Assembly: GCA_021848125.1 (NCBI GenBank)
Contig: JAJZMY010000019.1
Span: forward strand, 13,054 to 77,053
Length of the DNA stretch: 64,000 nucleotides
Source: Candidatus Micrarchaeota archaeon
Lineage (GTDB): Archaea; Micrarchaeota; Micrarchaeia; Micrarchaeales; Micrarchaeaceae
Reading direction: 5' to 3'
Shown: positions 9,127 to 64,000 of the stretch, piece after piece
Numbering within the stretch: position 1 is the stretch's first letter
Layout of the letters: each line of letters begins with the position of its first letter
Made by a program: the position numbers and the translations under genes
The notes under the pieces: generated by a model
Seen by the model: the letters and a program-made list of their open reading frames with translations, nothing else
What the model was told of the DNA's origin: nothing
Databases searched by the model: none

Positions 9127-9268
9127 TATATCCCTTTTTTAATCTAATTTAATTTAATTAAGTTTAAATCAATAAATTAATTAAATAATTATTTAAATAT
9201 AATTTAAAAATATTATTTATTTGCGAAATTCATTTTCTAGTTTATAAAAATAAAATTATAAATATGAT

Positions 9269-10063: not shown

Positions 10064-10205
10064 AAATTTATTCAAATTTTATCTATTTTAAAATAAATTG
10101 ATACAAAAAGCATAAAAACCTTTCAAATTTAATTAATAAAAGTAAATAAGTTGGGTATAAATCAAGAAAAATATAAATAAATTTTAAAGAGAGGGTGTAG
10201 AGTTA

Positions 10206-11636: not shown

Positions 11637-11678
11637 ATATATTATAATAAATTGGGATATTTAATGTTGATGATGTAA

Positions 11679-43509: not shown

Positions 43510-45288
43510 ATGAAAAATAAAATTAATAATTTAAAAATAATAAATACAGATATTTTGATTATTGGCGGTGGCGGAGCAGGGTTAAGAGCTGCAATTGAAG
43601 CCTATGACAATAGAATTAACAATGCAAAAATAATTATTGTCTCAAAATCTCTTCCTGGAAAAGCGCATACAGTCATGGCAGAAGGCGGAATTGCAGCATC
43701 CCTTGGAGATGTTGACGATAAAGACAACTGGAAAGTTCATTTTTCAGATACTTTTAAAGAAGGTGTTTATTTAGGCAACTATAAAATGATTGAAATTTTA
43801 GTAAAAGAAGCTCCGGAAAGAGTTTATGAACTTGAAAAATATGGTGCATTATTTGACAGAACAAAGGAGGGGAAAATAATGCAAAGAGCATTTGGTGCAC
43901 ACACCTATAAAAGATTATGCCATATTGGGGATAAAACAGGAATGGAAATAATTCGTGTTCTTGAAGATCAGGTATTAAAAAGAAATATTGAATTTTTAGA
44001 TGAATTGCAAATCACAAAAATATTCAAGCATGAAAATAAAATTATCGGAGCCATTGGGCTTGATTTAAAATCAGGCAATTTTATTTTGATTAATTGTAGG
44101 GCAATAATATTAGCAAGCGGCGGATGCGGAAGATTATACAAAACAACATCTAATTCACTGGAAACAACTGGCGACGGACTTGCAATGGCCTATGATATTG
44201 GATGTGAATTAATTGATATGGAAATGGTTCAATTTCATCCGACAGGCATGGTTTATCCATTAGGCGTAAAGGGATTATTAGTAACAGAGGGAATTAGAGG
44301 TGAAGGGGGAATATTATTAAATAATAAAAATGAAAGATTTATGAAAAAGTATTCACCAAAAAGAATGGAGCTGGATGCAAGAGACGTTGTTGCCAGAGCA
44401 ATATATAATGAAATAAAAATAGGAAACGGAACAGAGCATAATGGCGTTTATCTAGATATCTCCCATAAAGGTGCAAGTTTTATAAAAAAGAAGCTTCCTG
44501 CAATGTATGAGCAATTTAAAGAATTTGCAGATATTGATATCACAAAACAAAAAATGGAAGTCGGCCCTACTGTTCATTACCATATGGGGGGAATCAAAAC
44601 AAATCCAGGAACATGTGAAACAAATATAAATGGATTGTTTGCTGCTGGCGAAGTGGCCGGAGGGCTGCATGGAGCAAATAGGCTTGGTGGAAATTCACTA
44701 GCAGATATTCTTGTATTTGGAAGACGTGCAGGATTATTCTGTTCTAAATATATTAATGAAAATAAACGAGCAAATTTTGATATTATGTCAAATCTATTAT
44801 TAAAACAACAAATTAATTTGGAAATAAGGAGAATAAATAATTATTTAAGTCTTTATAGCTTCAAATCCTTAAAAAATAAAAATAATAATAATTTAGTGGT
44901 TTATGAATTATTAGATTTATTAAAATCAACAATGAATGAGAATGTTGAAATTATAAGAAGCGAAAAATCATTAAAAAATGCATTGAAAGTGATAAATAGT
45001 ATAAAAAATCAGTTAAAAAACATCAAAGTCAATGGAACTACCAAATATAACAGGGGTCTATTGGCTTGTTTGGAGCTTGAAAATGAATTAAAAATCGCAA
45101 ATTGCATAATAAAAAGCGCGATTAAAAGAACTGAAAGCAGGGGCGCACATTTTAGAAGCGATTTTCCAAAAACAAGTAAATTATGGAAAAAAAATATTAT
45201 TTGCAAAAAGCAAAATAATTCATTAAAATTAACATTAGTAAAAGTTCCTGAACTTTCAAAGAATTTAAAAAAAATATTGGCAGATTAA
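43510..45288 (+). CDS. sdhA: succinate dehydrogenase / fumarate reductase flavoprotein subunit
   Basis: IIGGGGAGLRAA, HTVMAEGGIAA (FAD-histidine context), HPTG, HYHMGGI and ESRGAHFRSDFP. Confidence 0.85.
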   Translation: MKNKINNLKIINTDILIIGGGGAGLRAAIEAYDNRINNAKIIIVSKSLPGKAHTVMAEGGIAASLGDVDDKDNWKVHFSDTFKEGVYLGNYKMIEILVKEAPERVYELEKYGALFDRTKEGKIMQRAFGAHTYKRLCHIGDKTGMEIIRVLEDQVLKRNIEFLDELQITKIFKHENKIIGAIGLDLKSGNFILINCRAIILASGGCGRLYKTTSNSLETTGDGLAMAYDIGCELIDMEMVQFHPTGMVYPLGVKGLLVTEGIRGEGGILLNNKNERFMKKYSPKRMELDARDVVARAIYNEIKIGNGTEHNGVYLDISHKGASFIKKKLPAMYEQFKEFADIDITKQKMEVGPTVHYHMGGIKTNPGTCETNINGLFAAGEVAGGLHGANRLGGNSLADILVFGRRAGLFCSKYINENKRANFDIMSNLLLKQQINLEIRRINNYLSLYSFKSLKNKNNNNLVVYELLDLLKSTMNENVEIIRSEKSLKNALKVINSIKNQLKNIKVNGTTKYNRGLLACLELENELKIANCIIKSAIKRTESRGAHFRSDFPKTSKLWKKNIICKKQNNSLKLTLVKVPELSKNLKKILAD

Positions 45289-45313
45289 TATTTATAAATT
45301 ATAAGGTAAAAAT

Positions 45314-46009
45314 ATGAATAAAATAATAAAAATATATAAATCCCAGGAAAATAAATTCAAAGAATTCGAAGTTCCGATTCAGGAAGGAATGGTTGTGCTT
45401 GATGCAGTTATTTATATACTTGAACATTTTGATTCTACTATTAGCGTGAGATGGAATTGCAAAGCAGCAAGATGCGGGTCTTGTGGAGCTGAAATAAATG
45501 GCCTTCCAAAATTGATGTGCAAAACAAGAATTGATTCAATAAAAGAAGATATCGAGATAAAACCCTTAAAAATATTTAAAAATGTGCAGGATATTGTTGT
45601 TGATGTTTCTGATACATGGGAAATAAAAAAGAAAATGCCAGGTTTTGAAATAATAAATAAATTTTCAAACAAAAATATTTCAACAAAAGAAATGAAAATA
45701 TATGAAATTGATGTTGAGAGGGCGCAGGAATTCAAAAAATGCATAGAATGCTTTCTTTGTTTAGATTCATGCCATGTTATTAGAGAACATAAAACAAATT
45801 ATATCGGTCCAATGCATGTTGTTAAAACTGCGTCATTTGATATGAACCCAATTGATAAAAAAATCAGAATAGATTTTCTTGATAAAAATGGAATTAGATA
45901 CTGCAATGTTACTAAATGCTGTACTGAAGTTTGTCCTGCCCATATTAAGATAACAGATAATGCAATTATTCCTGAAAAAGAAAGAATAAATGATAAAAAA
46001 ATATTATAA
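45314..46009 (+). CDS. sdhB: succinate dehydrogenase / fumarate reductase iron-sulfur subunit
   Basis: Cys clusters CKAARCGSCG..MC, CIECFLCLDSC and CNVTKCCTEVCP. Confidence 0.8.
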   Translation: MNKIIKIYKSQENKFKEFEVPIQEGMVVLDAVIYILEHFDSTISVRWNCKAARCGSCGAEINGLPKLMCKTRIDSIKEDIEIKPLKIFKNVQDIVVDVSDTWEIKKKMPGFEIINKFSNKNISTKEMKIYEIDVERAQEFKKCIECFLCLDSCHVIREHKTNYIGPMHVVKTASFDMNPIDKKIRIDFLDKNGIRYCNVTKCCTEVCPAHIKITDNAIIPEKERINDKKIL

Positions 46010-46740
46010 TGTTTATTAAATTTTCAATAGTATGGAATGTTATGAAAGAAAATAATAAAATAATAAAAACATTAATTCCCCCAGAATTTAAAAATATAAG
46101 ATTTTTTTCATTTTTATTATTAATGATAACAGCCATTTTTATTCTTTTAATGTTTCCTGTTTCAGAATACAGAGGTTATATAGATCCGTTTTATTCCCCG
46201 ACTATTTTAATCATTCCAATAATTGCATTGTTTAGATTAACATGCTATGGATTTAGAAAAAGTTATAACAGGCATTTGTTTAAGCATCCTCAGTCATGCA
46301 TAATTTCAAGACAAAATGACAATCAAAATTATTATACTGGCGAAACAAGCCTATTATTTAGAATAGAAAATTTACACAGATATTTTATGTATTTTTCTCT
46401 TTTAATTCTGCCATTTTTTTATTATGATTTATATCTTTCATTTGTATTTAATTTGTCTATACTGCGGCTTGGCAGCATATTTTTATTAATTGACACTATT
46501 TTATTAACTTTATATATATTCTCCTGCCATTCTATACGAAATTTGATAGGCGGAAATAAGGACTGCTTCAGCTGCTTGAAATTTTCACAAAAAAGAAAAA
46601 AAATATTTGATCTGCAATCATTTTTAAATTCAAATCATGAATTTTTTGCGTGGTCAAGCCTTGTTTTTATTATTTTTGTTGATCTTTATATAAGGGCAAT
46701 GATTGCGTTTCATTTTGATATAATTTTATTACATATTTAA
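46009..46740 (+). CDS. polytopic membrane protein; putative membrane anchor of the Sdh/Frd complex
   Basis: The ATG overlaps the sdhB stop (TAATG), implying co-translation. It has about 5 hydrophobic segments with several His and Cys residues. Assigning it as the anchor is inference from position only. Confidence 0.35.
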   Translation: MFIKFSIVWNVMKENNKIIKTLIPPEFKNIRFFSFLLLMITAIFILLMFPVSEYRGYIDPFYSPTILIIPIIALFRLTCYGFRKSYNRHLFKHPQSCIISRQNDNQNYYTGETSLLFRIENLHRYFMYFSLLILPFFYYDLYLSFVFNLSILRLGSIFLLIDTILLTLYIFSCHSIRNLIGGNKDCFSCLKFSQKRKKIFDLQSFLNSNHEFFAWSSLVFIIFVDLYIRAMIAFHFDIILLHI

Positions 46741-49219: not shown

Positions 49220-50008
49220 ATGGCTCAAAATAATCCTAATCAAGGTATTATTATTCAAAATACTGCAAATAACCAGCAGCAGCAAGTTCAGCAAGAACAA
49301 ACTACTCCCTATGTTGAGTCAATAAAAATCAGTGCAAACTTAATCAAATCATTTGAAGATATTTCCAAAATAGTTTCGAATTTAGAAGTTTTTTCATATC
49401 AACTGAATCAGGATAATTTAATTTTATTTAAAGTAGAAAGCAGGGACTTGCAAAAAAAACCATTTCTTTTTTTTGTTTTTAGTTTTTATAAAGATTATAT
49501 TGAAATACAATATTCAATTGCAGTTGATGCAAGCAAAAAATTAAGAAGAATCACTATTATTAAGAATTTTTTGAGTGTTTTATCTTTAATAAGCAATTGC
49601 TATGAAATCAATTTAAAAGAATTATTCCAGCATTTGGATTCAATAATAGATGATCTTTTATCTTCCTTATCCCAAAGTTATAGCACATTGTTTAATAATT
49701 ATGATTCTATTTTTAATCAATATAAGGAATTGAAATTAATTAATAATGATCTTGCAATATCTAATAAAAATTTAGCTGCAACAACTGGACAGCTTACTCA
49801 AAAAAATAAAGAATTATCTGAAAAATTAAAGGACCTTGAGACATATTCAGATGAATCTTTAATGGTAATGATTGAAGAGTGGATTGAATCACATGATAAC
49901 ACAATTGATATTAATGAATTTGCAAAAAGTTATAAAATTATACCGCCAAGAGTAGAACAGATATTGAATAAGATGGTAAGTTTGGGTTATTTAGAATTAA
50001 AAGAATAA
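49220..50008 (+). CDS. hypothetical protein: Gln-rich N-terminus, coiled coil, C-terminal wHTH-like segment
   Basis: NNQQQQVQQEQ at the N-terminus, a heptad-like region (NNDLAISNKNLAATTGQLTQKNKELSEKLKDLE), and the C-terminal INEFAKSYKIIPPRVEQILNKMVSLGYLELKE. Confidence 0.4.
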   Translation: MAQNNPNQGIIIQNTANNQQQQVQQEQTTPYVESIKISANLIKSFEDISKIVSNLEVFSYQLNQDNLILFKVESRDLQKKPFLFFVFSFYKDYIEIQYSIAVDASKKLRRITIIKNFLSVLSLISNCYEINLKELFQHLDSIIDDLLSSLSQSYSTLFNNYDSIFNQYKELKLINNDLAISNKNLAATTGQLTQKNKELSEKLKDLETYSDESLMVMIEEWIESHDNTIDINEFAKSYKIIPPRVEQILNKMVSLGYLELKE

Positions 50009-50203: not shown

Positions 50204-52726
50204 ATGCCAAAATCCAATAATCTAATTAATCTATTAAAATTACATAAACGATTAGTTATAATTGCAGTAATTGTTGCTGTCTTGTTTTTTGCGCTTATTT
50301 TTTTTATTCAATTCCAATTGCATTCAATAACATCGCATTATATAACAAAAAAAATAATAATTAATTCACAGCTTTCTGCTAGATTTATTTCATCTGGAAT
50401 AACATTTGATAATAATACAAATTTACAGAATATAAAATCTAAAAGAAACTATACAATAGAATCTTATCCTTATTCAATAATTAGTTATAAATCATATAAT
50501 CTTTCTAATTTAACAATAAATGAATCAATTTTCAAAAATGCAATACCTTCAAAGATTTATATATGGAATACAAGCGGTGAAAATTTTCAAGGCCTAAATA
50601 CTAATCAGGTTCTTGTTTTACTTAAAAAATATCTAAAAATTTACAATATAACTGATAATATTTCAATAATTTCCTATGCTAATATTTCGCAAATTCAGAA
50701 TAATTCAATATTGCTTGTACTAACAGGATTAATGCCAATCCAGATGTTTCAGCAAGTAAACAATTCAAATTTTACAACTATCTCATTCTTACTAAATAAA
50801 GGAACTAGCATAATTTATACGGGCGCAAATTTGTCAAGAGTTGTTCAGTCCCCATTTTCAACTCCACTTCCTTCCCAAAATATTCCAAGCTTTTTGGAAT
50901 GGATTCCGAATACAACAATTTATAATTCAAGTTTTTACTTTTCAAAAAAAACATTTAAATTTTTTAACGGCACTGATTATGGCCCAATAACGTATATTAA
51001 TTATCTGAATGGATCTGTTGTTGCTTTTTCAAACTACCCTGATTCTTGGAATTCAGTAAATCAGTTTTCATATGACTTGGCTAAATCAATTGCAGAATTG
51101 TTTTGGATGCCCAAATATGCAACAGGCTACAGATCTGTAAATTTATCTAATTTCAGTTATTCATCAGGAACATTGGGGCTTGTATTAAACAGTTCAAATG
51201 TTAATTATACTTATGAAAATCATAGTTTGATTGTAAATAACTTCAATTCTGGATTTCCCAGAATAACAATTTCAAATTCAAATAATTTTTCATTTAATAT
51301 AAATTTTCTAAATTCAACTAAATATTATTATTTTTATAAAAATAATATTAGTTATAATGCTACAATTAATTTATCAAATTATTCAAAATTTTTCTATATC
51401 CAAAATAAACCAAATTTTTCATTGAATGGCAGTGTGATTGTTCCAAACCTTGCAATTCCAAGCATACCAATTCTAGCAAATATTTCAGAGTTTGTAACAT
51501 GCCAAAATCTTAATTTGACAATAGAGCCATCAATTTATTTTTATACAATAAATTTCACTCAGATTGGCTCCCCAATATTTTTAGGATTTCATTATCCCTG
51601 CAAAAAATCATTCAATAATAAATTTACATTCTATTATTATCCAACTTTTAATCTCCCATCAGGAACTTATTTTGCAGTTGTTAGAAACTCTAACTTTTCA
51701 GTAGTTGGCTCAGGTATGTTTAATATTCCTAAAATAAATATTAATTTAAGCAGTGAAAATTTTAAAACAAATCAATTTATTTTGACAATAACTGCAAATA
51801 ATAAAATTTTATCTGGCATTCCATTCAAGTTAAATTTAAATAATTTCGGAAATGAGTCAGGAACAATTGTTAATGGCTCTATTATTTATCAATTGCCACA
51901 AGGAATAGTATTAACCTACAGCCAAAATCTTAATTTTACTTTATACATGCTTAACCATAAATATATTAAGTTTGTTCCCGGACAAGTAACCCCCTTTGTT
52001 GTTAATCAAAAAATCATAATATTAGGCATTGCAGGAATATTTTCTATTTTAATGATGGTTTTAGTAAAAGCGCCAAATAAAGATGAATTTTATATTGATG
52101 TGCCTTCAATTCCAATTCAAAAAAAGATTCCAGTTGAATTAGATACAAATGAATTTATAAGTATATTCAATAAATTAAATTTATATTATCACTGGAGATT
52201 CATGCCTTTGTCAAAAGATGAAATAAAAACAGGTGTATTTAATAATATAAGATTCAATGGAATGCCAGTGACTATTACTTATGACAATTTAGAAAAATTG
52301 CTTATAATGTTATCGCATAATAATATTTTAACAGATATTGATAATTTATATTTGCCTAATTCCTGGATTGATCAAGTTCAGCATGATGCGGAATATTTGG
52401 CTACTTTTAAAAAATTAAGGCTTTATTTTGTTTCGCATACATTCATGTTTACTGATCTAGATCTTAGTAATAGTGGCGATATTACTGCAACATTCCATGA
52501 TCAAAAAATAAATATAATTATTTATTCAAAATCAACAAAGTTTAAGAATATTCCAATATATGAAAACTCAAAAACCTACTTAGCCTTTTTAAATAATGAT
52601 AAATTAGAAGAATTTAAATTAAAATTATATAATTCTAATTTAGATGAAGCAAGGGAATTGGAGTTGTATATTTCATTAAATAAAATATTATTAATAAATG
52701 CGGATTCTCCAGAAATAATTATATAA
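50204..52726 (+). CDS. large bitopic surface protein: N-terminal TM, about 570-aa sequon-rich ectodomain, second TM, about 230-aa cytoplasmic domain
   Basis: TM1 is LVIIAVIVAVLFFALIFFI and TM2 is IIILGIAGIFSILMMVLV. I counted about three dozen N-x-S/T sequons by hand between the two TM segments. No domain recognised. Confidence 0.5.
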   Translation: MPKSNNLINLLKLHKRLVIIAVIVAVLFFALIFFIQFQLHSITSHYITKKIIINSQLSARFISSGITFDNNTNLQNIKSKRNYTIESYPYSIISYKSYNLSNLTINESIFKNAIPSKIYIWNTSGENFQGLNTNQVLVLLKKYLKIYNITDNISIISYANISQIQNNSILLVLTGLMPIQMFQQVNNSNFTTISFLLNKGTSIIYTGANLSRVVQSPFSTPLPSQNIPSFLEWIPNTTIYNSSFYFSKKTFKFFNGTDYGPITYINYLNGSVVAFSNYPDSWNSVNQFSYDLAKSIAELFWMPKYATGYRSVNLSNFSYSSGTLGLVLNSSNVNYTYENHSLIVNNFNSGFPRITISNSNNFSFNINFLNSTKYYYFYKNNISYNATINLSNYSKFFYIQNKPNFSLNGSVIVPNLAIPSIPILANISEFVTCQNLNLTIEPSIYFYTINFTQIGSPIFLGFHYPCKKSFNNKFTFYYYPTFNLPSGTYFAVVRNSNFSVVGSGMFNIPKININLSSENFKTNQFILTITANNKILSGIPFKLNLNNFGNESGTIVNGSIIYQLPQGIVLTYSQNLNFTLYMLNHKYIKFVPGQVTPFVVNQKIIILGIAGIFSILMMVLVKAPNKDEFYIDVPSIPIQKKIPVELDTNEFISIFNKLNLYYHWRFMPLSKDEIKTGVFNNIRFNGMPVTITYDNLEKLLIMLSHNNILTDIDNLYLPNSWIDQVQHDAEYLATFKKLRLYFVSHTFMFTDLDLSNSGDITATFHDQKINIIIYSKSTKFKNIPIYENSKTYLAFLNNDKLEEFKLKLYNSNLDEARELELYISLNKILLINADSPEIII

Positions 52727-54030: not shown

Positions 54031-55194
54031 TTAAATAAAACCCCTCATTTTTCCTCCGAGTCTTGCCGCGCCCCCTAAAAAGCTTGCTAATTGATTAATA
54101 GCAGCATATGCAATTACTATTATTAAAACAGGGTAAAATAATAACAATAGCCAGTAGCTTGCCATTGCATTTTTTATTTGCTGTACTTGAAGTATAAGAG
54201 GACTTGCAGGAGTCAAGGCATTTGTGATTGATCCTTGATTTGCGCCGAATTTATTTAGCAAAACAGATGCAGTAGTCAGGTTTTGCAAAACACTTGGAGC
54301 AGTGAAATAAAATGCAATTGCAAATAATATTGGCACAATCAAATAAAACGTTATTGCAATAGCCATCAACATTCCTCCCAATGCCCTTGTCGGGAATATT
54401 GATCTGAAAATAATTCCAGGAACTAGAAATACTGGTATTGATGCAATTGAAAAAAATACTAATAAAAAGTATTCAGCCCACAAAATAAATATTCCGTCAG
54501 AAATAATATTCATCAGTGCCATAGCAGGATCTAAAAAAAAGAAAGTCACAACAAACTGGCCGATTTCAAGCGCAATATTAACTACATTTGTTGCTTTTAG
54601 TATCAATTTAAAAATAGTTGTTGACGATCCACCAACAATCAATGACATTGAATAATAATATTTATCTTTAATGTATTGCGTAAATAAACTAGAATACAGA
54701 GTTTGTGATTCACTGACTGTTGCAGTGATTAAATTAAGTGCAGTTGGATATGGGTTAATAGGGCCAACAGTTAATCCTGGCAAAATACCAAATATAACAG
54801 CGCATACATATAAAAATAAAAGAACAATTATTCCACTTGCAGCTGCTTCGAATATTTCTCCAATTCCAAAATTCTTGATCCTGCTGTTTCCTGTCAATGC
54901 GCCAGCCATGTAAATTATAGATGCTATTGCAAATGAAATTAAAACAGCAATCCACATAAGCGGCGCTTCTTTTGTAAATGTATTGCCTATCTGGCTGTTT
55001 ATCTGGCAGTACCATGGTTCTGTTCCTTCAATTGTTGTCCTGATTGATGAAGGAAGCGTGGAGCAGCCAGCTGCGCTTGTTGATGGAGAAGGTATAATGC
55101 TGCCTGCCATGCTTACTGAGCTTATTAAACTTATAAAAACTAACAATAATGAAATTATTGAGCATAATTTTAATATTTTTTTCATATTTTCCAC
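54031..55194 (-). CDS. polytopic membrane protein, member 1 of a six-gene paralogous family (uncharacterised)
   Basis: Signal-like N-terminus, then S/T/P-rich SPSTSAAGCS..WYC. TM segment ending IIYMAG, linker GIGEIFEAAASG, loop motif FRSIFPTRALGGMLMAIAI..VP, and tail FLGGAARLGGKMRGFI. Confidence 0.7.
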   Translation of the reverse strand: MENMKKILKLCSIISLLLVFISLISSVSMAGSIIPSPSTSAAGCSTLPSSIRTTIEGTEPWYCQINSQIGNTFTKEAPLMWIAVLISFAIASIIYMAGALTGNSRIKNFGIGEIFEAAASGIIVLLFLYVCAVIFGILPGLTVGPINPYPTALNLITATVSESQTLYSSLFTQYIKDKYYYSMSLIVGGSSTTIFKLILKATNVVNIALEIGQFVVTFFFLDPAMALMNIISDGIFILWAEYFLLVFFSIASIPVFLVPGIIFRSIFPTRALGGMLMAIAITFYLIVPILFAIAFYFTAPSVLQNLTTASVLLNKFGANQGSITNALTPASPLILQVQQIKNAMASYWLLLLFYPVLIIVIAYAAINQLASFLGGAARLGGKMRGFI

Positions 55195-55249
55195 ATTTGT
55201 TATTTGTTTAATTATTAATTTAAATTTAATTATTGTTTAATATTATTTG

Positions 55250-56323
55250 CTAAATCATTGTTCCCATTAAACTCATAAATGACATTCTTTCTCCGATTGC
55301 AGTTGAAAAATCAATTATAAAAGCATCAAGAATCAGGAAATTCAAAAATGGTATAAATGTCAGTCCCCCAATTATATATCCCAGATTCAATGCAAAAGCT
55401 CCGGATATAAATACATTCTGGAATCCGAATAAATTAGAAATTGCTGTTGTCATAATGCCAGAATAAGCCTGTATAAACTGCCAAATGACTGTAGTTGCAC
55501 TAATAGTTCCGATTTGTGTTGAAATGAATCCATAGGTAATTGCAGTCAATAATGGAAAAACAAATCCAAGCCCGATCCCAAGTGCAATCATTGCCCCTCC
55601 AAAAGTTCTTGTTACTCCGAATATTCTTGCAACAAGCCCGATTACTAAAAACAAGGACAGGAACAGCAGTGATGAAGAGATAAGCATTAGCTGGATCTGG
55701 TTTAAAATCAGCATGACAAGTATTGCGCTGAAAAATACTGATAAAAATTCTGCTTGGGATTTTGGAAAAATACTATTTATATCAGAGCCAATTGAGACAG
55801 AACCCAGCTTTGTTGCACTTATTGAACTTGCCCCAATGCTTACATTTACTCCAGGGCTGAAATCAAGAATTGTCTGGCCCCAGTAAAAAACCTGGAAATA
55901 TGTTTCAACATCAGAATTGAAGGCACTTAAATCACATGCAGATAATTGAAATAATGTATCAGTGCTTGTGCACTGCGTTGGAACTAGATGTGCAGAGCTA
56001 AATGACGGCACTGGATTTGAAAAAAACAATGCGCTTATCCATACAAAAATCAATAAAATAACAAAAGACAAAAATGCTTCATATATCTGCATTTTTGTCC
56101 ATGCCTCTATTCTGGTATTAAACATGAATCTGGACAGCATATAAATAAATGCTGCAATTGCAATTACAACCAGAACAGCAATAAATGCAATTGGCTCCCA
56201 GTTGCTGACGCTGATTGGAAATGCAGGGCTGGAAGCAGCATATGAATTATTAATCAAGAAAATGCTTGCAAATAAAACAATAATAGAACTTACTGCATAT
56301 TTGCTGGTATTTTGCTTTTCCAT
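55250..56323 (-). CDS. polytopic membrane protein, member 2 of the paralogous family
   Basis: Signal-like N-terminus (..INNSYAASSP). FIYMLS, linker MQIYEAFLSF, a paired-Cys loop (QCTSTDTLFQLSAC), and loop motif ARIFGVTRTFGGAMIALGI..FP. Confidence 0.7.
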   Translation of the reverse strand: MEKQNTSKYAVSSIIVLFASIFLINNSYAASSPAFPISVSNWEPIAFIAVLVVIAIAAFIYMLSRFMFNTRIEAWTKMQIYEAFLSFVILLIFVWISALFFSNPVPSFSSAHLVPTQCTSTDTLFQLSACDLSAFNSDVETYFQVFYWGQTILDFSPGVNVSIGASSISATKLGSVSIGSDINSIFPKSQAEFLSVFFSAILVMLILNQIQLMLISSSLLFLSLFLVIGLVARIFGVTRTFGGAMIALGIGLGFVFPLLTAITYGFISTQIGTISATTVIWQFIQAYSGIMTTAISNLFGFQNVFISGAFALNLGYIIGGLTFIPFLNFLILDAFIIDFSTAIGERMSFMSLMGTMI

Positions 56324-56335
56324 TTTATCAAATAA

Positions 56336-57475
56336 TTAAATTACATTTTTTAATGCATGCTCTGAGCTTAATGAGGGCGCTCCTAGCAAGTCTCCTACTT
56401 GCTCCATAAAATTAAATGCAATTATTAATGAAAAAATATAAATTATTAATGTATATAATACTGGCTCTAAAATATATGTTGTAATAAATCCAAAAGGTGC
56501 AATAACCCCATTGATTGTATTTATAATTGAAGTAAAAATATTTATTCCACTATTTACGCTTGACACCTTGCTTGCTTGAAAATTACTATTAACCTGGCTT
56601 AGAGCACTTGCAGCAGAATTAGGGCATGCTGATGATGTTGATGCAGTTGATGCTGATGATGTTGATGCAAGGCATTGAAATGCAGCAGGCCCCATTAATC
56701 CAAAATAAAGCATAATTGGAAACATTATGTATAAGCCTGCAAACAGCCCAAGAAATGCGCCTCCAGCAGCCCTTGTCCATGGCACTGCCCTAAGAACAAT
56801 GCCAATATAAAGAAAAATCGGGAAAAATGCATAAATAATTCCCAGAATAATTGACATTCCAAACAATAGCATTATTAACATTCCAGAAATAGTTATCCCA
56901 TAATTTAATGGTGTTGAAATAATCCCAAACCCAGCAAAAGGCGAGAATGTAATTCCCTCCCAATTGGGATATATGCGCACTGTAATACTTGAAAATATTT
57001 TTATTATTAGTTGGGACAATGACATCTGAACTAATGGTGAAATCAATCCAAGTGAAGAAGTTGTCAGGCTTATGCAGTCAGAGCCATATATATTTGTTAT
57101 GCCTCCGCTTGCTGATGTGCTTGTAGAGCCAAGCATGCTCATTGCTGTAAGAAAAACAAATGCAACAATGCCTGTTAATATTATTTCTCCGATTTCAGCC
57201 CTTGTAAATATTAATAATTTTTCTATTCCAAGCCCATATGCAAGTGCGTACAAGAATCCAACAACTGTAATCATAACTAGAATTATCAGCACTGTCATTT
57301 TCAGCAATGCATTAGGCGCATTTGGAGCCAGTGTTAAAAAAGTGTTTTTCGGGTTTATTACTCCGCCTGGACCAGTGCAGAATTGCGTTATTGTTTCTGC
57401 ATGAATGCTTGGAATGATTAAAATAAACACTATTAAAATCAATAATGATTTTTTGATTGCATTGTTTTTTTTCAT
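56336..57475 (-). CDS. polytopic membrane protein, member 3 of the paralogous family
   Basis: Signal-like N-terminus (..IPSIHAET). FLYALA, linker RAEIGEIILTG, loop motif LRAVPWTRAAGGAFLGLFA..FP, S/T/A-rich loop CLASTSSASTASTSSAC, and tail VGDLLGAPS. It lies 12 nt from the next gene. Confidence 0.7.
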   Translation of the reverse strand: MKKNNAIKKSLLILIVFILIIPSIHAETITQFCTGPGGVINPKNTFLTLAPNAPNALLKMTVLIILVMITVVGFLYALAYGLGIEKLLIFTRAEIGEIILTGIVAFVFLTAMSMLGSTSTSASGGITNIYGSDCISLTTSSLGLISPLVQMSLSQLIIKIFSSITVRIYPNWEGITFSPFAGFGIISTPLNYGITISGMLIMLLFGMSIILGIIYAFFPIFLYIGIVLRAVPWTRAAGGAFLGLFAGLYIMFPIMLYFGLMGPAAFQCLASTSSASTASTSSACPNSAASALSQVNSNFQASKVSSVNSGINIFTSIINTINGVIAPFGFITTYILEPVLYTLIIYIFSLIIAFNFMEQVGDLLGAPSLSSEHALKNVI

Positions 57476-57488
57476 AGCATCTTTTTTA

Positions 57489-59072
57489 TTATATTATTTT
57501 TGACAATCCTGCCAGGTTTGTGTCTCCGCCGAGAAGGCCTGATAGCCCTATAATTGATGAAATAACAATAAAAATATTTATAATGGGAAGAAAATATGCA
57601 GTAACTCCTATTATGCCATATGCTTCCATAAATTTAAAAAATGCCCTTAATAAGCTATTGGGTCCACAATTGTCTGTTATGACCATATGGGGCACGCCTG
57701 GAGTAACAAGGGATCCAACGCCAGTATATACCAATGTTACTAATGATGAACCAGGTACAAGGAATTCAATAGAATCAATTGCCTCAGCTTCCAGAAGATT
57801 GTCATTTGACGGCCAGCATTGATAATAATATGCTATTTTGTTTAATTGAGGCTCAATGAAAAAATTAAGAGTATATGGATCTTGGACAGGAGTGCCTGAA
57901 GACCATTGGACAGGCGCATCTGATGGATATCCTGGTATGAATGTAATTGGGTTTGTTGCAATTGTATTGAATCCGTAAATTCCTCCAATGCATCCGCTTG
58001 CGCTTGGATTTGCAGAGCATGAGCTTGGAGACGATGAAATCAAATTTCCAATCCCGTTTCCAAGGCCAAGGTATTCAAGCAAAAACACTGCTGGAAATAT
58101 TAAAATCATTGCAATTCCGACTGCAATCAGCAATCCGCCTATTTTCCTGGTAAATATTGTTGCCCTTAATACTAATCCAGAGAATATGAGAACTGGCCAT
58201 GAATACAAAGAAATAATAATAAACAGGAACTGGGCAATGAATGAATTAAGAGCAGTTGTCAGCAATGCGCCAAGTGTTCCGAGCTCGCTGTAAACAATGT
58301 CAAACCCAGCATAAGGCGTTGCTGCATATCTTATATATAAAATTGGCAACGCAGTCGCTATTCCAGCAAGACCTTCAGGCACTGCTATAATTCCGCCCAC
58401 TGCTGAGCATGAAGCCATTGTTGGAATTGGATCCAGTAATGCATCAACTGCTGGTATGCACCAGCTCATTGTCGGCGTAAGCATTGACAAGTACCCAATA
58501 AAGCTGTCAAAAACAAACAAGCTGTTAAGATTGTGGGCCGTCTGGTTTGTCAAGTTTGCCAGGATTATTCCAGACGCTACTAATGGATAATCAATATGCC
58601 TTGTTGGAGAATCAAGGGAAGTATAAGCGCATAATCCTGGAAACTTGGAATAACTTGACTTTAAAAATGTGTTTGTGCTGGCGCCAAATGAATTAGTTCC
58701 TATTATATTTATAAAACTTGTTGTGTAGAGATTGCTGCATAAAGTACTGATTGTTCCTGGGGATGCTGGCGCTACTGATGAAGATGATGAAGAACTGTAA
58801 AAGAAGTTTGAATTTGTTAATACTGAATCAAAGCTTGTTGCCAAAAACAGCAGAATTCCAATAATTATCATTGCCAGGATTGCTGTGCCAACTGCCTGGT
58901 ATGCCTCTGTTTTTGCGCCTTCTTTTATTTTGGAATTATTAAGAAAAGAGCCAATAAAATACCACACACTGACAACTGCAAAATCAAGAATAATTGCAAT
59001 AATAACCAATGGCATTATTGCATTTGATGCCGAAGAAAAACTCAATGGATTAATGCTTGATAATAAAAACAT
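57489..59072 (-). CDS. polytopic membrane protein, member 4 of the paralogous family (largest, 527 aa)
   Basis: Linker KTEAYQAVGTA, an SSSSSSVAPASP stretch, several paired-Cys loops, loop motif LRATIFTRKIGGLLIAVGI..FP, and tail LLGGDTNLAGLSKII. Confidence 0.7.
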   Translation of the reverse strand: MFLLSSINPLSFSSASNAIMPLVIIAIILDFAVVSVWYFIGSFLNNSKIKEGAKTEAYQAVGTAILAMIIIGILLFLATSFDSVLTNSNFFYSSSSSSSVAPASPGTISTLCSNLYTTSFINIIGTNSFGASTNTFLKSSYSKFPGLCAYTSLDSPTRHIDYPLVASGIILANLTNQTAHNLNSLFVFDSFIGYLSMLTPTMSWCIPAVDALLDPIPTMASCSAVGGIIAVPEGLAGIATALPILYIRYAATPYAGFDIVYSELGTLGALLTTALNSFIAQFLFIIISLYSWPVLIFSGLVLRATIFTRKIGGLLIAVGIAMILIFPAVFLLEYLGLGNGIGNLISSSPSSCSANPSASGCIGGIYGFNTIATNPITFIPGYPSDAPVQWSSGTPVQDPYTLNFFIEPQLNKIAYYYQCWPSNDNLLEAEAIDSIEFLVPGSSLVTLVYTGVGSLVTPGVPHMVITDNCGPNSLLRAFFKFMEAYGIIGVTAYFLPIINIFIVISSIIGLSGLLGGDTNLAGLSKII

Positions 59073-59109
59073 TTTATCATTTAATTTATTGTTCTTTTAT
59101 TTTATATTC

Positions 59110-59226
59110 TTTTTGCAAAAGCTTTTTTTAAAAGCTTTATTTCTGCTAAAGCTTCAGCAGGTTTGCTGCTGAATTTTGCAAACTTTTCATTTTGCCAAAG
59201 CTTTTTTTAAAAGCTTTATTATTCAT
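59110..59226 (-). repeat. palindromic intergenic repeat, long form (copy 3, inverted orientation)
   Basis: The reverse complement reads atgaataataaagcttttaaaaaaagctttggcaaaatgaaaagtttgcaaaattcagcagcaaacctgctgaagctttagcagaaataaagcttttaaaaaaagcttttgcaaaa. It fills the 150-nt gap between paralogs 5 and 4. Confidence 0.8.
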
Positions 59227-60674
59227 ATTAAATTTGTATTCAAAGCTTTTGTCAGCCCCATTGCAAATCCAATGACAATTGCAAAATCAATTCCCAGCAT
59301 AAAAAATACAGTGAATTCAAATTGCGCAATTTCATTAACAAGGTTTAATAAATCCTGAATAACTATATTCGGATCAATAATTGACCAAATCACATTGCCT
59401 GTTACTGCTGTTGAAAGAATTTGATCTATTGACGGCAATCCTATTCCAAGAATTGTTGCTGACGCTGTCGGGTTGCCTGCGAATAAGGAGCTGGATGGTA
59501 TTTTATTCAATAAATATGTTGAATGCAAATAAGTATACGAAGGGTTTTTCGAGCTGAATATCCAGTGAATTGCCCATGCATTAAAAACAATTGTTAATGG
59601 CAGTATAAGGTAAAAGGCAATTGCCAAGGCAAGAAATGCATTTGCTGCTGATTTCAAGCCAACACTTTGCGCAGCTGCGCCTCCTCCCCCAAAACCAGAA
59701 TAAGCAATCATTCTAAGAACCAATGCAACTGGCAGCACAACAGTAAAAGCAACAAACTGTATAACAGGCAGAATCAGCCATAATAAATACAGCAAGCCAA
59801 TAGCCATAATTACAAGAGGAGCAAAAATTGAAAGCAGCAAATCGCTTAAAATATTGTATGATGCTCCCAAATCATAGCCAGTTGAAAATTGGACAGACAA
59901 TGAAAAAGGCCCTAATGAAGTAGCTGCAGAAATACTTGAAGATAGTGCAGAAGTTAGAACTGAACTTGCTGAAGCAATAACATTAAACAGCAACTGGCCA
60001 ATATTTGAAAATATCATTGAATCAATATTAAAGCCTATTGCATAAGTATAAATCTGGATCAACAGTTTAATTCCAACAGAATTTGATAAATTTCCAATAT
60101 AATAATCAGCAAACTGAAAAGGATTGCTTGCAGGAACAGGATATGTTCCAGTGCTTAAAGAACTTCCAATTGAGCTTGTTATTTTGCATGCACTTGTAGT
60201 AAAGGTAAGAAGCAGCATAAGTATTGCAGCGCTTATTATTACCTGGATTAATTCTATTTTTGTGATTTGCGTGAATTTTTCCCTTTCCCTTGCTGAAATA
60301 AATCGTGATGCCATATAAATAAATGAAATAACAAGCAGGCTTACTATTAAGACATATAAATTTATCCACATCCAGTTATTGTAATTTCCAGTGCTTGTTC
60401 CCCCAAATAAACTGCACGACTGTATGCTCGGGCCTGTACTTGTTGGCGCAGGAGATGAAGCAGGGATTGCTGTCGCTCCGGCAGCATTAATATTCATGAA
60501 TACAGATAAAAACAAAACAGCAATAAAGCCAATCAAAATAAAAAATGATTTTTGGTTTTTTATTTTTTTATTATTTATTAAATTAGTTTTAGTGCTTTTG
60601 CGCATGCTCATTCTGTATTTATTTTTTTGATTTTTGCCAAAGCTTTTTTTAAAAGCTTTATTTATATTATTCAT
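59223..60674 (-). CDS. polytopic membrane protein, member 5 of the paralogous family (divergent loop motif)
   Basis: S/T/P-rich segment ATAIPASSPAPTSTGPSIQSC. FIYMAS, linker KIELIQVIISA, and a degenerate motif LRMIAYSGFGGGGAAAQ. The first 21 codons (MNNINKAFKKSFGKNQK..) are read from a copy of the palindromic repeat. Met22 or Met24 (60611 or 60605) may be the real start. Confidence 0.65.
   Translation of the reverse strand: MNNINKAFKKSFGKNQKNKYRMSMRKSTKTNLINNKKIKNQKSFFILIGFIAVLFLSVFMNINAAGATAIPASSPAPTSTGPSIQSCSLFGGTSTGNYNNWMWINLYVLIVSLLVISFIYMASRFISAREREKFTQITKIELIQVIISAAILMLLLTFTTSACKITSSIGSSLSTGTYPVPASNPFQFADYYIGNLSNSVGIKLLIQIYTYAIGFNIDSMIFSNIGQLLFNVIASASSVLTSALSSSISAATSLGPFSLSVQFSTGYDLGASYNILSDLLLSIFAPLVIMAIGLLYLLWLILPVIQFVAFTVVLPVALVLRMIAYSGFGGGGAAAQSVGLKSAANAFLALAIAFYLILPLTIVFNAWAIHWIFSSKNPSYTYLHSTYLLNKIPSSSLFAGNPTASATILGIGLPSIDQILSTAVTGNVIWSIIDPNIVIQDLLNLVNEIAQFEFTVFFMLGIDFAIVIGFAMGLTKALNTNLI
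60628..60674 (-). repeat. palindromic intergenic repeat, short form (inverted), overlapping the annotated 5' end of paralog 5
   Basis: The reverse complement reads atgaataatataaataaagcttttaaaaaaagctttggcaaaaatca. Confidence 0.75.
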
Positions 60675-60739
60675 GATATTTCATTTAATTTAATTTCAAA
60701 CAATATTTAATATTTTAATATTCTGGTTTTTATTTTTTA

Positions 60740-62053
60740 TTATGCTAATTTCAATCTTCCAATTCCTAATTTTAAAGCACCACCTAATAATCTTGCAATG
60801 TTTTCTGCAATAACAATTGTTATTACTAAATCAATTATTAAAAGCAAAAATTCTATTATTAATGGCAAAATTAAAAATAATACATAATTGTACACAGCAG
60901 AAATTCCAGACATTGGCCCAAACATGCCAACTAAAATGCCAGTAAAAAATACAGATGAATCAACAATAAATGGCGATGTTACAATACTGCAGATAGGGGT
61001 TTTTACTGTATTAAATATTTGCTGCAGTAAAGGGCAAATTAATGGAGAGGTGTTTATTGTAAATGTTGTTGGGGCAGTCGGAGGGCTTAGGGTATTCATT
61101 AAGAAATTCTGAATCGGCACATTTATTGCAAGCAATAATGTTGGAAATATTATTGAAATGGCAATTGCAATTGCAATCAGCATTCCGCCAATTGATCTTA
61201 AAAAAGGCATTGCCCTGAATACAAGGCCTATTGGCAGCAAAATTGAAAGGCACAACATAGCCAATGGAATAAACATATCTTTCATAAACTGGAATAGCAT
61301 TAATAAAGGAACAGTAATAAAGTCAAATGCCTGGTTTACAAATGAATAGCTGCCGTGTGATGATTCAAGAGTATTTGACAAAAACAGATTCTCTTGAAAT
61401 CCAAATGACAATGCCCCAATTGTAAGTGGAGGAATTGGAAGCACTGGAATTGGAATATAAAGCATCACTGAAATGCTTTTTATAAAGCTTAATCCAACAG
61501 ATACGCCGAGCAGTCCCCAGTAAGCAGTATAAGCTGATGCAAGTTCTGGTACAAGATAATTTGACTGAATAGAAGTATAAAGCGAGCCTAATGTCGAGCT
61601 TAAGCTTGTTGTAGAGCCAGGCGGAGCGCCTACAAGCGCATTTGCAATGCCGCCGATTTCAACAAGCAGTGAAAAAATAATAGCAACCAGCAACGCGCTT
61701 TTTGTAAGCTCCCATATTTCAGCCTTGTACCAGTTTTTAAATCCAGATATCTGCAAAACCTCTCCAATCATGTAAGATACTGCAATCATTAAAAGAGACA
61801 CGGTTAGAGCAATTAATGCAATTGGAATTGAATCAGTAATGCATTTTCCAACTGGCTCACTGCTTCCAGTCATAATACAATAAGTGCTAGGCAGTGCTGT
61901 TGCAGATGCAGGAGAAGTTGTCTTGCTTGGAGTACATGATAAAGAAAGAGAACAAGCAGTTCCTGCTGGAGTTGCTGTAATGAAAAAATTAGAAAATATA
62001 AAAAAAGATAAAAATAAAATAAATATAAATAATAAATTAATTTTTTTATTCAT
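60740..62053 (-). CDS. polytopic membrane protein, member 6 of the paralogous family
   Basis: Signal-like N-terminus, then TPAGTACSLSLSCTPSKTTSPASATALPSTYC..KC. SYMIG, linker KAEIWELTKSA, loop motif FRAMPFLRSIGGMLIAIAI..FP, and tail LLGGALKLGIGRLKLA. Confidence 0.7.
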   Translation of the reverse strand: MNKKINLLFIFILFLSFFIFSNFFITATPAGTACSLSLSCTPSKTTSPASATALPSTYCIMTGSSEPVGKCITDSIPIALIALTVSLLMIAVSYMIGEVLQISGFKNWYKAEIWELTKSALLVAIIFSLLVEIGGIANALVGAPPGSTTSLSSTLGSLYTSIQSNYLVPELASAYTAYWGLLGVSVGLSFIKSISVMLYIPIPVLPIPPLTIGALSFGFQENLFLSNTLESSHGSYSFVNQAFDFITVPLLMLFQFMKDMFIPLAMLCLSILLPIGLVFRAMPFLRSIGGMLIAIAIAISIIFPTLLLAINVPIQNFLMNTLSPPTAPTTFTINTSPLICPLLQQIFNTVKTPICSIVTSPFIVDSSVFFTGILVGMFGPMSGISAVYNYVLFLILPLIIEFLLLIIDLVITIVIAENIARLLGGALKLGIGRLKLA

Positions 62054-62277: not shown

Positions 62278-62923
62278 ATGTATAATAAAAACAAGAGAGC
62301 AAAAAATAAAGGCTGAAATAGAAGATAAAGTCATTGAGGCAATATTTTCTATAACGGATAAAGCAGCATTTCATGGAGGCACATGTGTTTGGAGATGTTA
62401 TGGTGGAAAGAGATTCTCACAGGATATTGATATCTATGTGTGGGACAGAAACCTGGAATATAAATTAAAAGAATCGTTGGAAAAGGTTGGATTAAATGTT
62501 CTTAAGTATAGATTTAAAGAACATATAATTTTTATACATGTCTCTCTATTGAATGCGGAGCAATTTGAAGTAAAGATAGAAATAAACAATAAAAAAATTG
62601 AAAATTTTATTGTTGTATTTTATGAAACAGTTAGTGGACGGGGCATGCAGATAAATAATTTATCTGATGAGGATCTAGTTCTAGAAAAGATAAACGCATA
62701 TAATAATCGAAGATTACATAAAGATTTGTATGATATTACAATATTACTAAACAGCATTGCAAATTCTGCACATATAAATAGTGCTTTGACAAAATTTATA
62801 AGTGCTATCGCTCCTCCAAAAGATGCATATATTGAATTTAAAGCTACAATTTATTCTGGGTCTATTTCATCATTTGGTAGTATGATAGATTTAATAAAAA
62901 GATGGATAAAACAAAATAGATGA
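62278..62923 (+). pseudogene. AbiEii-like nucleotidyltransferase (toxin-type), reading frame broken near an A5 run
   Basis: The frame holding the NTase motif (AAFHGGTCVWRCYGGKRFSQDIDIYVW) is open from 62243. It has no ATG, GTG or TTG before GTG 62438, which lies after the catalytic motif. ATG 62278 is in a different frame and stops after 12 codons. Deleting one A from the run at 62287-62291 would fuse them into MYNKTREQKIKAEIEDKV... Confidence 0.5.
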
Positions 62924-62927
62924 AAAA

Positions 62928-63533
62928 ATGACAAAAAAATATATTAAGATATTTAAAGAGCATTTTAAAACAGTTCCTGTCTTTACAACAAGAGATGTAA
63001 GGCTTTTTTTAAACCAATTTGGATCTAAAAATTATGCTCTTAGATTCATTCAAAATCTAAAAAAATCAAATGCCTTAATAGAATTGAAAAATGGTTTTTA
63101 TACATTAATAGATGACATCACTGTTTCTGGTTTCATGTTTGATCCGTTTTATTATGGATTAGGCAAGGCATTAACATACTATAATTGCTGGGATTATGTC
63201 ACACCAATGGTAATAATAACCATCAGAAATGTAAGAAGCGGGATAAGGATGATAATGGGAATGAATGTAGATGTTAAGAGAATAAATAAAAAAATGTTCT
63301 TTGGCTTCAGATATGTTCCGTATGAAAATATGTTTTATATTCCAATGGCGACATTAGAGAAAACCTTGATAGATCTTGCATATTTTAATATGGGGCTTGG
63401 AGATCCTCAGATATATAAAAATATTCTGGAGAAGATAGATCATGATGAGCTTAAGAAGCTGATGAAGCAGACACCATTAAGAATAAAAAAAAGAGTCGAG
63501 AATATAATTAAGAATTACTCTTCAAGGGCATAA
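62928..63533 (+). CDS. AbiEi-like wHTH protein (antitoxin/transcriptional regulator type)
   Basis: The N-terminus FTTRDVRLFLNQFGSKNYALRFIQNLKKSNALIELKNGFYTL fits the AbiEi N-terminal wHTH pattern (..l..l.k.g.l..l.rG.Y.l). The gene starts 4 nt after the NTase stop. Confidence 0.5.
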   Translation: MTKKYIKIFKEHFKTVPVFTTRDVRLFLNQFGSKNYALRFIQNLKKSNALIELKNGFYTLIDDITVSGFMFDPFYYGLGKALTYYNCWDYVTPMVIITIRNVRSGIRMIMGMNVDVKRINKKMFFGFRYVPYENMFYIPMATLEKTLIDLAYFNMGLGDPQIYKNILEKIDHDELKKLMKQTPLRIKKRVENIIKNYSSRA

Positions 63534-63572: not shown

Positions 63573-64000
63573 TTAATGCTTTAATAATGCAAATCTTTTC
63601 ATATATGATTCTGCCTGAAGAATTACTAGAAATGGCAGTATAAAAATAGAATTAAAAATAAGCATAATAAATATTGATATCAGTGTAGGAAATAGGGATG
63701 TAAAAATAAAGTCAAATAAAGTAATCAGCACAACTGCAATAATAAGCCATAGTATAAAATAATTGAATTTTTTTGAAAAGAATGAAATGCTTTTTTTAAT
63801 TGCATTGATTGTCTTAGAATCATCAATTACTATTGATGAAGGCGCATAAAAAAATATAGGAATCAGACACAGCAGAATAACAGCGCTTACTAATCCTGAA
63901 AAGCCAAAAACCAATTTGTTAAGCAAAATCGGAACTGCAATGGCAATAAAACTAAACAATAATAAAACTAAAAAAACTTTTCCAGTATATTTCTCAAGCC
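63573..64000 (-). CDS. integral membrane protein, partial (the ORF stays open to the right window edge)
   Basis: About 4 hydrophobic segments. The in-frame translation upstream of the listed TTG start (..LEKYTGKVFLVLLL) has no stop before position 64000. Confidence 0.4.
   Translation of the reverse strand, partial: LEKYTGKVFLVLLLFSFIAIAVPILLNKLVFGFSGLVSAVILLCLIPIFFYAPSSIVIDDSKTINAIKKSISFFSKKFNYFILWLIIAVVLITLFDFIFTSLFPTLISIFIMLIFNSIFILPFLVILQAESYMKRFALLKH

Follow-up and report, generated by a model that had tools for sequence, protein, structure and literature searches.

Six tandem paralogs and their shared architecture

The 64,000-nucleotide (nt) stretch of Candidatus Micrarchaeota DNA analyzed here (part of contig JAJZMY010000019.1 of assembly GCA_021848125.1; hereafter the window, by whose own numbering positions are given unless another locus is named) carries on its minus strand a tandem array of six genes for multi-pass membrane proteins, p1 to p6, transcribed from p6 to p1. 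A preliminary description of this DNA had listed six same-strand open reading frames (ORFs) separated by 12-150 nt, with three gaps of 12-55 nt; all six were found, at the lengths claimed (Table 1), and the gaps from p1 to p6 measure 55, 12, 13, 150, and 65 nt. The true start of p1 may be an ATG at 55185, 9 nt downstream of the GTG used in the table, which would give a protein of 384 residues as in entry P0002.

Pairwise phmmer and BLASTP comparisons among the six window proteins gave weak signals, and paralogy was therefore tested with profiles: one ortholog alignment was built for each paralog, from about 65-75 genomes each, and the six profiles were compared by hhalign. All 15 pairs match with probabilities of 95.9-99.8% over 66-317 aligned columns, far above chance expectation, and the six genes are thus true, anciently diverged paralogs of one membrane protein family, as the preliminary description had proposed for what it saw as distant paralogs of common architecture. 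When the six window proteins alone are aligned by MAFFT, they are 22-27% identical, and P48, Y95, G212, R264, G273, G274, and P288 (residue numbers here and below as in p1) are invariant.

The motifs picked out by eye in the preliminary description also held up in a joint MAFFT alignment of 425 family members. The two arginines of the conserved R-x5-R-x2-G-G loop (R264 in 97% and R270 in 96%) and the proline that follows the loop (P288 in 100%) are in register; G260 and the G273-G274 pair are kept in about 85% of the sequences and lost in p5 only, the paralog whose loop had been called degenerate; the glutamate of the linker (E113) is kept in 81% and replaced in p2 only; G374 of the LGG-type C-terminal tail is kept in 84%, and the tyrosine ending the first transmembrane (TM) segment, TM1, in 76%. 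Kept as they are across 425 sequences, these motifs are real, in register, and ancient. The paired cysteines of the early loop fared less uniformly: they are present in p1 and p6, but p3 and p5 have one cysteine each and p2 has none.

Hydropathy profiles of the six window proteins show a signal peptide (which, in line with the five of six counted earlier, only p4 lacks) followed by five strong TM peaks. A short K/R-rich stretch links TM1 to TM2, and the arginine hairpin (R264-x5-R270-x2-GG in p1) links TM3 to TM4; two long loops of 35-142 residues, TM2-TM3 and TM4-TM5, contain all of the cysteines; and a short, basic tail ends the chain. The positive-inside rule, taken with the signal peptide, lets us infer a topology of N-out, five TM segments, C-in, which would put the arginine loop and the LGG tail on the cytoplasmic side of the membrane. 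The AlphaFold2 model of p1 (predicted local distance difference test score, pLDDT, 84.9; predicted template modeling score, pTM, 0.77) is all-helical, and its helices, 30-60 residues long, leave the membrane to form an extracytoplasmic bundle. In some p1 orthologs the protein begins with an extension of several hundred residues (P0041, 912 residues in all; P0040, P0043, and P0044, 578-599 residues; and an ORF of 1237 residues), which fits an exposed N-terminus; the P0041 extension matches SprB-repeat and PF22352 domains, and Ig and PKD domains are matched in other family members, suggesting adhesin modules fused to the extracellular N-terminus.

An exhaustive search of representative sequences for the family gave 2688 clusters (the best 150 of the 2688 are listed). 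The named homologs of the six proteins are nearly all from Micrarchaeota/Micrarchaeia metagenome-assembled genomes (MAGs), of which many were recovered from acid mine drainage; the remainder are from Marsarchaeota-labelled MAGs and from one labelled Candidatus Acidiferrales bacterium. Orthologs of p1 are 45-73% identical across Micrarchaeota, the nearest being those of loci L010 and L004 at 70-73%.

The surrounding gene cluster in relatives and in this genome

Synteny was analyzed by tblastn, both around orthologs that lie on long contigs and in a scan (80 loci) for which each GTDB species supplied one genome. All 68 non-redundant loci in which the whole array is covered, drawn from about 80 Micrarchaeota species, show the order p6-p5-p4-p3-p2-p1, and the array is thus syntenic in other archaeal genomes, a check that the preliminary description had proposed. 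Because order and copy number are the same in all of these loci, the duplications are older than the radiation of the phylum, and no copy has been lost anywhere since. Most relatives have the array embedded in a cluster of 15 genes, s128-m243-p6-p5-p4-p3-p2-p1-a277-b279-ATPase-c102-d112-cc242-big784, the end of which usually adjoins the topoisomerase VI B gene; in 53 of the 68 loci, s128 and m243 precede the array and a277-b279-ATPase come immediately after p1. The m243 gene, which encodes a 243-residue multi-pass membrane protein in relatives, is always upstream of the array.

In the s128 protein, a signal peptide precedes two hydrophobic helices with a conserved Pro/Lys loop between them, and the mature chain has a conserved cysteine near each end. 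Members of the s128 family match Pfam PF04956 (TrbC/VirB2) in 11 of 20 cases (best E 1.1e-6) and PF18895 (T4SS_pilin) in nine of 20, matches by which we assign s128 to the TrbC/VirB2-type pilins. T-pilin and RP4 pilin are cyclized head to tail, and one may speculate that a disulfide between the ends of the s128 chain would mimic such cyclization.

On the other side of the array, the ATPase matches NCBIfam models for CedD (2.8e-21), CedB (4.3e-18), VirB4-like CD1110 (3.1e-16), and HerA (4e-16), all far below the curated cut-offs; its PDB matches include HerA and VirB4, and the TraC/VirB4 proteins of conjugative plasmids are related to it with about 23% identity. Across Micrarchaeota its sequences share 68-86% identity, as compared with about 45% for p1. 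Since its Walker A motif already lies at about residue 68, the ATPase has neither the N-terminal domain of VirB4 nor the HAS barrel of HerA, and it also lacks TM segments. A HerA-NurA repair module was considered and rejected, as no NurA is present and the ATPase lacks a HAS-barrel N-terminus. The adjacent c102 duplicates, as a separate protein, the roughly 80 residues of the ATPase C-terminal domain (hhalign probability 97.5%); after it comes d112, which combines a zinc ribbon with a TM helix at the C-terminus.

Between p1 and the ATPase lie a277 and b279, which are mutual paralogs (hhalign probability 97.6%), both of which begin with two TM helices and have an alpha/beta domain. When the AlphaFold2 model of a277 (pLDDT 78.4, pTM 0.54) was searched against the PDB with Foldseek, the best 13 matches were all to TrwK, the VirB4 protein of plasmid R388 (probability 0.93-1.00, E 4.5e-3 to 8e-2). 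As a277 has no Walker or other nucleotide-binding motif, the simplest reading of the model is a domain of the VirB4 N-terminal type that is anchored in the membrane. In the Ced system, the N-terminal domains of CedB and CedD can each be superposed on a different portion of the N-terminal domain of VirB4 (PMC11868833), a pairing that the a277/b279 pair parallels.

With a TrbC/VirB2-type pilin gene on one side of the array in relatives, and VirB4-like proteins and an ATPase of CedB/CedD/VirB4 type on the other, the block can no longer be called unassignable. The statement that it holds no ATPase or pilin is correct for this window but not for relatives, where both flank the array. Pfam and NCBIfam searches found no relaxase, VirD4-type coupling protein, or integrase among the cluster genes of locus L001, and the cluster as a whole appears from its gene content to be a chromosomal, non-conjugative derivative of a type IV secretion system (T4SS), of the Ced/Ted kind.

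Table 1. Positions of the array genes, of other cluster members, and of an inserted ORF pair; positions refer to the window, except those prefixed L001.
Feature	Position	Strand	Description
p1	54031..55194	-	387 aa from GTG start; last gene of array; best conserved paralog
p2	55250..56323	-	357 aa; Gln in place of the conserved TM1-TM2 linker Glu
p3	56336..57475	-	379 aa
p4	57489..59072	-	527 aa; no signal peptide; two large Cys-containing extracytoplasmic inserts
p5	59223..60674	-	483 aa; basic N-terminal extension; degenerate GG loop
p6	60740..62053	-	437 aa; first gene of array
Two ORFs	62438..63533	+	161 aa (weak AbiEii match) and 201 aa (no family match); opposite strand to array, between m243 and p6
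m243, 3' part	63573..64000	-	runs off window end; tblastn with L001 and L003 proteins matches 63998-63576 at 48-56% identity
s128	L001:740-1126 and orthologs; expected just beyond window position 64000		pilin gene, by synteny
ATPase	L001:14034-15551		about 505 aa; Pfam DUF87/HerA-central, AAA_10, TraG P-loop
c102	L001:15544-15852		duplicate of ATPase C-terminal domain
cc242	49220..50008	+	coiled-coil; 54-55% identical to L001 and L003 orthologs; inverted relative to array; weak ZapB-like coiled-coil match
big784	50204..52726	+	840 aa; 35% identical over full length to L001 and L003 orthologs; last cluster member; inverted relative to array

The cluster is only partly represented in the window. 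Upstream of p6, two ORFs on the opposite strand separate the array from the 3' part of m243 (the AbiEii match of the 161-residue ORF has E 0.001, below the family cut-off). Because m243 and p6 are adjacent in relatives, with a spacer of only about 150 nt, this pair is no component of the system but was inserted in this genome only, breaking up the operon at its upstream end; by synteny, the s128 gene would lie just past the end of the window. The big784 protein has an N-terminal TM segment, an ectodomain, a second TM segment, and a conserved cytoplasmic tail of about 200 residues, with no family match; it contains 38 N-x-S/T sequons compared with the 16.6 +/- 3.6 expected by shuffling, and could be an adhesin or a surface partner of the machine.

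The window also contains housekeeping genes for topoisomerase VI B, a Hel308-type helicase, AglB/STT3, SecY, exosome, and proteasome. Genes for SdhA and SdhB, followed by a 243-residue ORF that has no Pfam match and is a candidate for a divergent membrane anchor, occupy positions 43510-46740 of the plus strand; together with an Fe/Mn superoxide dismutase (35892-36497), SdhAB points to an aerobic lifestyle in this genome of about 28% G+C. At 10206-13325 (plus strand), a gene for a 476-residue protein that weakly matches AAA_5/AAA_24 precedes one for a 548-residue von Willebrand factor A protein; this MoxR/VWA-like pair is unrelated to the array.

Relationship of the six proteins to VirB6 and CedA

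As the preliminary description had anticipated, no standard family model names the six proteins: searches of the window sequences against Pfam, NCBIfam, and PHROGs gave no credible match, the only one being of p5 to DUF2207_C at E 0.005. A PDB sequence-profile search with the family returned G protein-coupled receptor noise only, and Foldseek found no significant match of the p1 model in either the PDB or BFVD. When all families of the cluster were compared by hhalign with single Agrobacterium tumefaciens sequences of VirB1-B11 and VirD4, only the P-loop of the ATPase matched; a tblastn search with A. tumefaciens VirB6 in plasmids found close relatives only, and these were unusable for a broad VirB6 profile.

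We nevertheless think it probable that the six are polytopic membrane subunits, in the position of CedA/VirB6, of a T4SS-derived chromosomal machine conserved across Micrarchaeota. Specifically, i) A. tumefaciens VirB6 was reportedly found by Jakubowski in 2004 to have an N-out, C-in topology with five TM segments and large external loops, and the hydropathy of the six, with which the helices of the AlphaFold2 model of p1 are consistent, points to the same layout (N-out, about five TM segments, large extracytoplasmic loops, C-in); ii) the array is encoded together with a VirB4-family ATPase and a VirB2-type pilin in 53 loci of relatives, although not within the window; iii) the CedA model NF041796 is matched by three of 104 pooled p2-p6 members (best E 2.8e-6), and others match pilin-like conjugal or TcpD families; and iv) by hhalign, the s128 pilin family matches p5 with a probability of 93.4% over the whole mature pilin (p3, 44%; p6, 26%; pooled family, 44%), the aligned module of p5 being Cys - TM1 (ending in Y-[AM]) - basic loop - TM2, and one member of the p family matches Pfam T4SS_pilin (E 0.0015). 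In both CedA/CedA1 and VirB6/VirB2, the N-terminal hairpin of the polytopic protein has been likened to the pilin (Beltran et al., PMC9905601), a relation that the likeness between the p5 hairpin and s128 mirrors. The six proteins thus seem to be the functional, and probably also the evolutionary, equivalent of VirB6/CedA, an assessment that we make with fair confidence; judged by sequence models, the family is not to be filed as a member of PF04610 or CedA. The rejection of VirB6/TrbL in the preliminary description therefore stands insofar as no TrbL/VirB6 sequence model matches, but fails to the extent that genomic context puts the six in the VirB6/CedA position. A hetero-oligomeric membrane assembly in a DPANN symbiont, as proposed there, is still the most reasonable reading of retained ancient paralogs with a shared architecture.

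Several results weigh against equivalence with VirB6/CedA. PF04610 (TrbL/VirB6) is matched neither by the six window proteins nor, even at E<=10, by 154 family members (50 plus 104 further ones of p2-p6), and in the hhalign comparison with VirB6 of A. tumefaciens, a single sequence, the probability is 0.2%. In the Foldseek search, the VirB6 protein TrwI appears at ranks 5, 19, and 26 (7o3v_F, 7o3v_G, and 7o3v_J; probability 0.33-0.60) among generic helical proteins, and these matches, with E 0.7-1.3 and a target-normalized template modeling score of 0.30-0.43, are not significant. The CedA model matches none of the six window proteins at E<=1, and its matches elsewhere are sporadic (the three of 104) and below the curated cut-off, which would indicate distant relatedness rather than membership. 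Likeness to the pilin is strong for p5 only, and TM helices are prone to false positives. The N-terminal-type reading of a277 rests on its lack of a Walker motif, the region of VirB4 that was matched not being reported. All components are known here from sequences and predicted models alone. Finally, by tblastn, a277, b279, the ATPase, c102, and d112 are all missing from the window; nor are the ATPase, a277, and b279 beside the array in the closest relatives (L004, L005, L007, L008, and L010), so that their presence elsewhere in this particular genome can only be inferred.

In those five relatives the six genes are intact and 58-73% identical to those of the window. A search of database matches by amino acid composition found no ATPase or a277 of this clade, and scanning metagenomes with the ATPase led to contig L109 (VAOW01019166.1; 101.8 kb, 22% G+C), which carries a stand-alone a277-b279-ATPase-c102-d112 module at 8222-12270 with no array within 10 kb. 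The clade relatives L004 (23.5% G+C) and L010 (23.0%) belong to the same extreme class of base composition; the flanks of L109 do not overlap the window, and its tie to this genome is the G+C class only. Because a contig of this class carries the module alone, the ATPase module has most likely moved, rather than been lost, in the clade of the window. L109 shows, in any case, that the cluster is modular.

The six proteins could instead belong to a lineage-specific complex that works with a HerA/FtsK-type ATPase and does not descend from VirB6/CedA: a scaffold for envelope biogenesis, for adhesion, or for a cell-cell bridge that shares its operon with recruited T4SS genes. Such a scaffold would be consistent with the missing VirB6/TrbL model match and the insignificant structural match to TrwI, with an array that stays intact and conserved in a clade whose ATPase module left the locus, with the surface adhesion suggested by the SprB, PKD, and Ig-type extensions of some p1 orthologs, and with synteny to big784, a heavily glycosylated surface protein of 840 residues; we consider it unlikely, however, given the CedA matches in three members (best E 2.8e-6), the pilin-like N-terminal hairpin, and the place of the array, in 53 loci, between pilin and VirB4-like genes, where a VirB6 would be expected. 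It is very improbable that the six form a common solute transporter or ion-translocating complex that has nothing to do with the ATPase and whose members are alike largely in composition. Hydrophobic multi-pass proteins with weak pairwise BLAST likeness and no family matches are what one would expect of such a complex, but the profile-profile probabilities of 96-99.8% with motifs in register are not; nor was any transporter family matched in Pfam, NCBIfam, or the PDB, the AlphaFold2 helices project from the membrane with no compact transporter fold, and linkage to pilin and VirB4-like genes is tight and conserved.

We give just as little credence to an integrated conjugative or other mobile element acquired horizontally. 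Parts related to T4SS and an AbiEii-like ORF pair beside p6 would suit such an element, as would the base composition of the six-gene block, which has 34-38% G+C compared with 22-31% in its surroundings, and 0.25-0.30 G+C at third codon positions compared with 0.16-0.25. The excess, however, sits mainly at second codon positions (0.40-0.45 in the block and 0.20-0.35 elsewhere), and SecY, also a membrane protein, has 39% G+C; the bump therefore reflects mainly amino acid composition and not foreign origin, and horizontal transfer was rejected as its cause. Moreover, the cluster lies in the same place by topoisomerase VI B in about 80 species, as vertically inherited one-to-one orthologs; it contains no integrase, relaxase, or coupling protein; p1 has neither a plasmid match nor a significant viral structural match; and the toxin-antitoxin-like pair is specific to this genome. 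A viral origin was likewise discarded, there being no credible PHROG match and no significant structural match in BFVD.

If the six are indeed VirB6/CedA-like subunits, they would come together in the cytoplasmic membrane as a hetero-oligomeric channel or platform, probably with single copies of all six, a stoichiometry that would suit a hexameric motor of the FtsK/HerA type. A docking surface for a277, b279, and the ATPase might be formed by the R-x5-R-x2-GG hairpins together with the basic tails and the conserved glutamate where TM2 meets the cytoplasm, and the motor would be a split VirB4, consisting of membrane-anchored a277 and b279 plus the soluble, presumably hexameric ATPase. The platform would extract the s128 pilin from the membrane to build a pilus or conduit, with the extracytoplasmic helical bundles as the base for s128 polymerization; what passes through might be DNA, the substrate of Ced and Ted, or, in line with a proposal for Patescibacteria, effectors or material from the host. 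A more specific version, in which p1-p6 form a pseudo-sixfold ring on a hexameric split-VirB4 motor and, with a VirB2-type tube, a host-contact conduit exchanging DNA, lipids, or proteins with a Thermoplasmatales host, is tentative and in our estimation rather doubtful.

Comparison with known systems

The closest parallels are the DNA import systems Ced and Ted of Crenarchaeota, in which CedA/CedE and TedA are VirB6-like, CedA1 and TedC are VirB2-like pilins, and CedB/CedD and TedB are VirB4-like ATPases (PMC9905601, PMC11868833). Like these, the Micrarchaeota cluster would be a chromosomal, domesticated T4SS derivative of archaea that has neither a relaxase nor a coupling protein and combines a VirB2-type pilin and polytopic proteins of 5-7 TM segments with an ATPase of the VirB4/HerA clade; the Micrarchaeota ATPase scores best against CedD and CedB, and three family members match CedA. 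Ced has likewise gained paralogs (CedA/CedE and CedB/CedD). Unlike Ced and Ted, however, the Micrarchaeota cluster has six polytopic paralogs in fixed tandem order rather than one or two; a VirB4-like motor spread over three genes, two of them for proteins with TM helices and an N-terminal-type domain, and the third for an ATPase with neither; the additional partners m243, c102, d112, cc242, and big784; and a DPANN symbiont as its host. All scores are far below curated cut-offs, so that the components are not orthologs of those of Ced or Ted.

The likeness to VirB6/TrbL, as represented by TrwI of R388 (PDB 7O3V and 8RTD), lies in a periplasmic N-terminus, about five TM segments, large loops, a cytoplasmic C-terminus, and long projecting helices, as well as in genes set among those for VirB2 and VirB4 and in the weak Foldseek matches; on the other side of the balance, there is no detectable sequence relationship, and the structural match is not significant. 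TrwI is moreover a homopentamer located under VirB5, whereas no equivalents of VirB5, B7, B8, B9, or B10 were found in the Micrarchaeota cluster.

Tandem VirB6 paralogs are also found in Rickettsiales (rvhB6a-e of Rickettsia, and virB6-1 to -4 of Anaplasma and Ehrlichia; PMC2653234, PMC7648143). There, too, divergent polytopic paralogs stand side by side in a host-dependent organism of reduced genome, and other T4SS genes are scattered; but the Rickettsiales proteins are bacterial, true members of PF04610, and often very large, with C-terminal extensions. The expansions were independent, and the comparison is one of analogy only.

The kind of system is therefore known, namely archaeal machines derived from T4SS; what is apparently new is the combination of a fixed sextet in the VirB6 position, a VirB4 in three genes, and conservation throughout a DPANN phylum. 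No description of the Micrarchaeota cluster was found in the literature, paywalled papers not being covered. The design is unusual in its six fixed VirB6-position paralogs, in a VirB4 split over three genes, and in a pilin with a cysteine at both ends of the mature chain, and it would extend the Ced/Ted story beyond Crenarchaeota. Micrarchaeota and other DPANN archaea live in dependence on hosts, with genomes of about 1 Mb; a cluster that is chromosomally fixed in about 80 sampled species is a candidate for the symbiont-host interface, and is testable in the cultured Ca. Mancarchaeum acidiphilum and Ca. Micrarchaeum harzensis systems.

A bacterial parallel exists in the chromosomal T4SS of Patescibacteria (candidate phyla radiation, CPR), which comprises VirB4, TrsD, PrgI/VirB3, VirB6, and VirB2-like pilins and is reported to be essential for epibiotic growth in one cultured strain (PMC12102498). 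Both are phylum-wide, chromosomally fixed systems of monoderm type in ultrasmall symbionts with reduced genomes; the Patescibacteria system differs in being bacterial, in having components that standard profiles recognize, and in having a single VirB6 and an unsplit VirB4. Should the Micrarchaeota cluster prove to encode a host-contact conduit, its hetero-hexameric VirB6-like core would be essential for the DPANN lifestyle, and the machine would be an archaeal counterpart of the essential T4SS of Patescibacteria.

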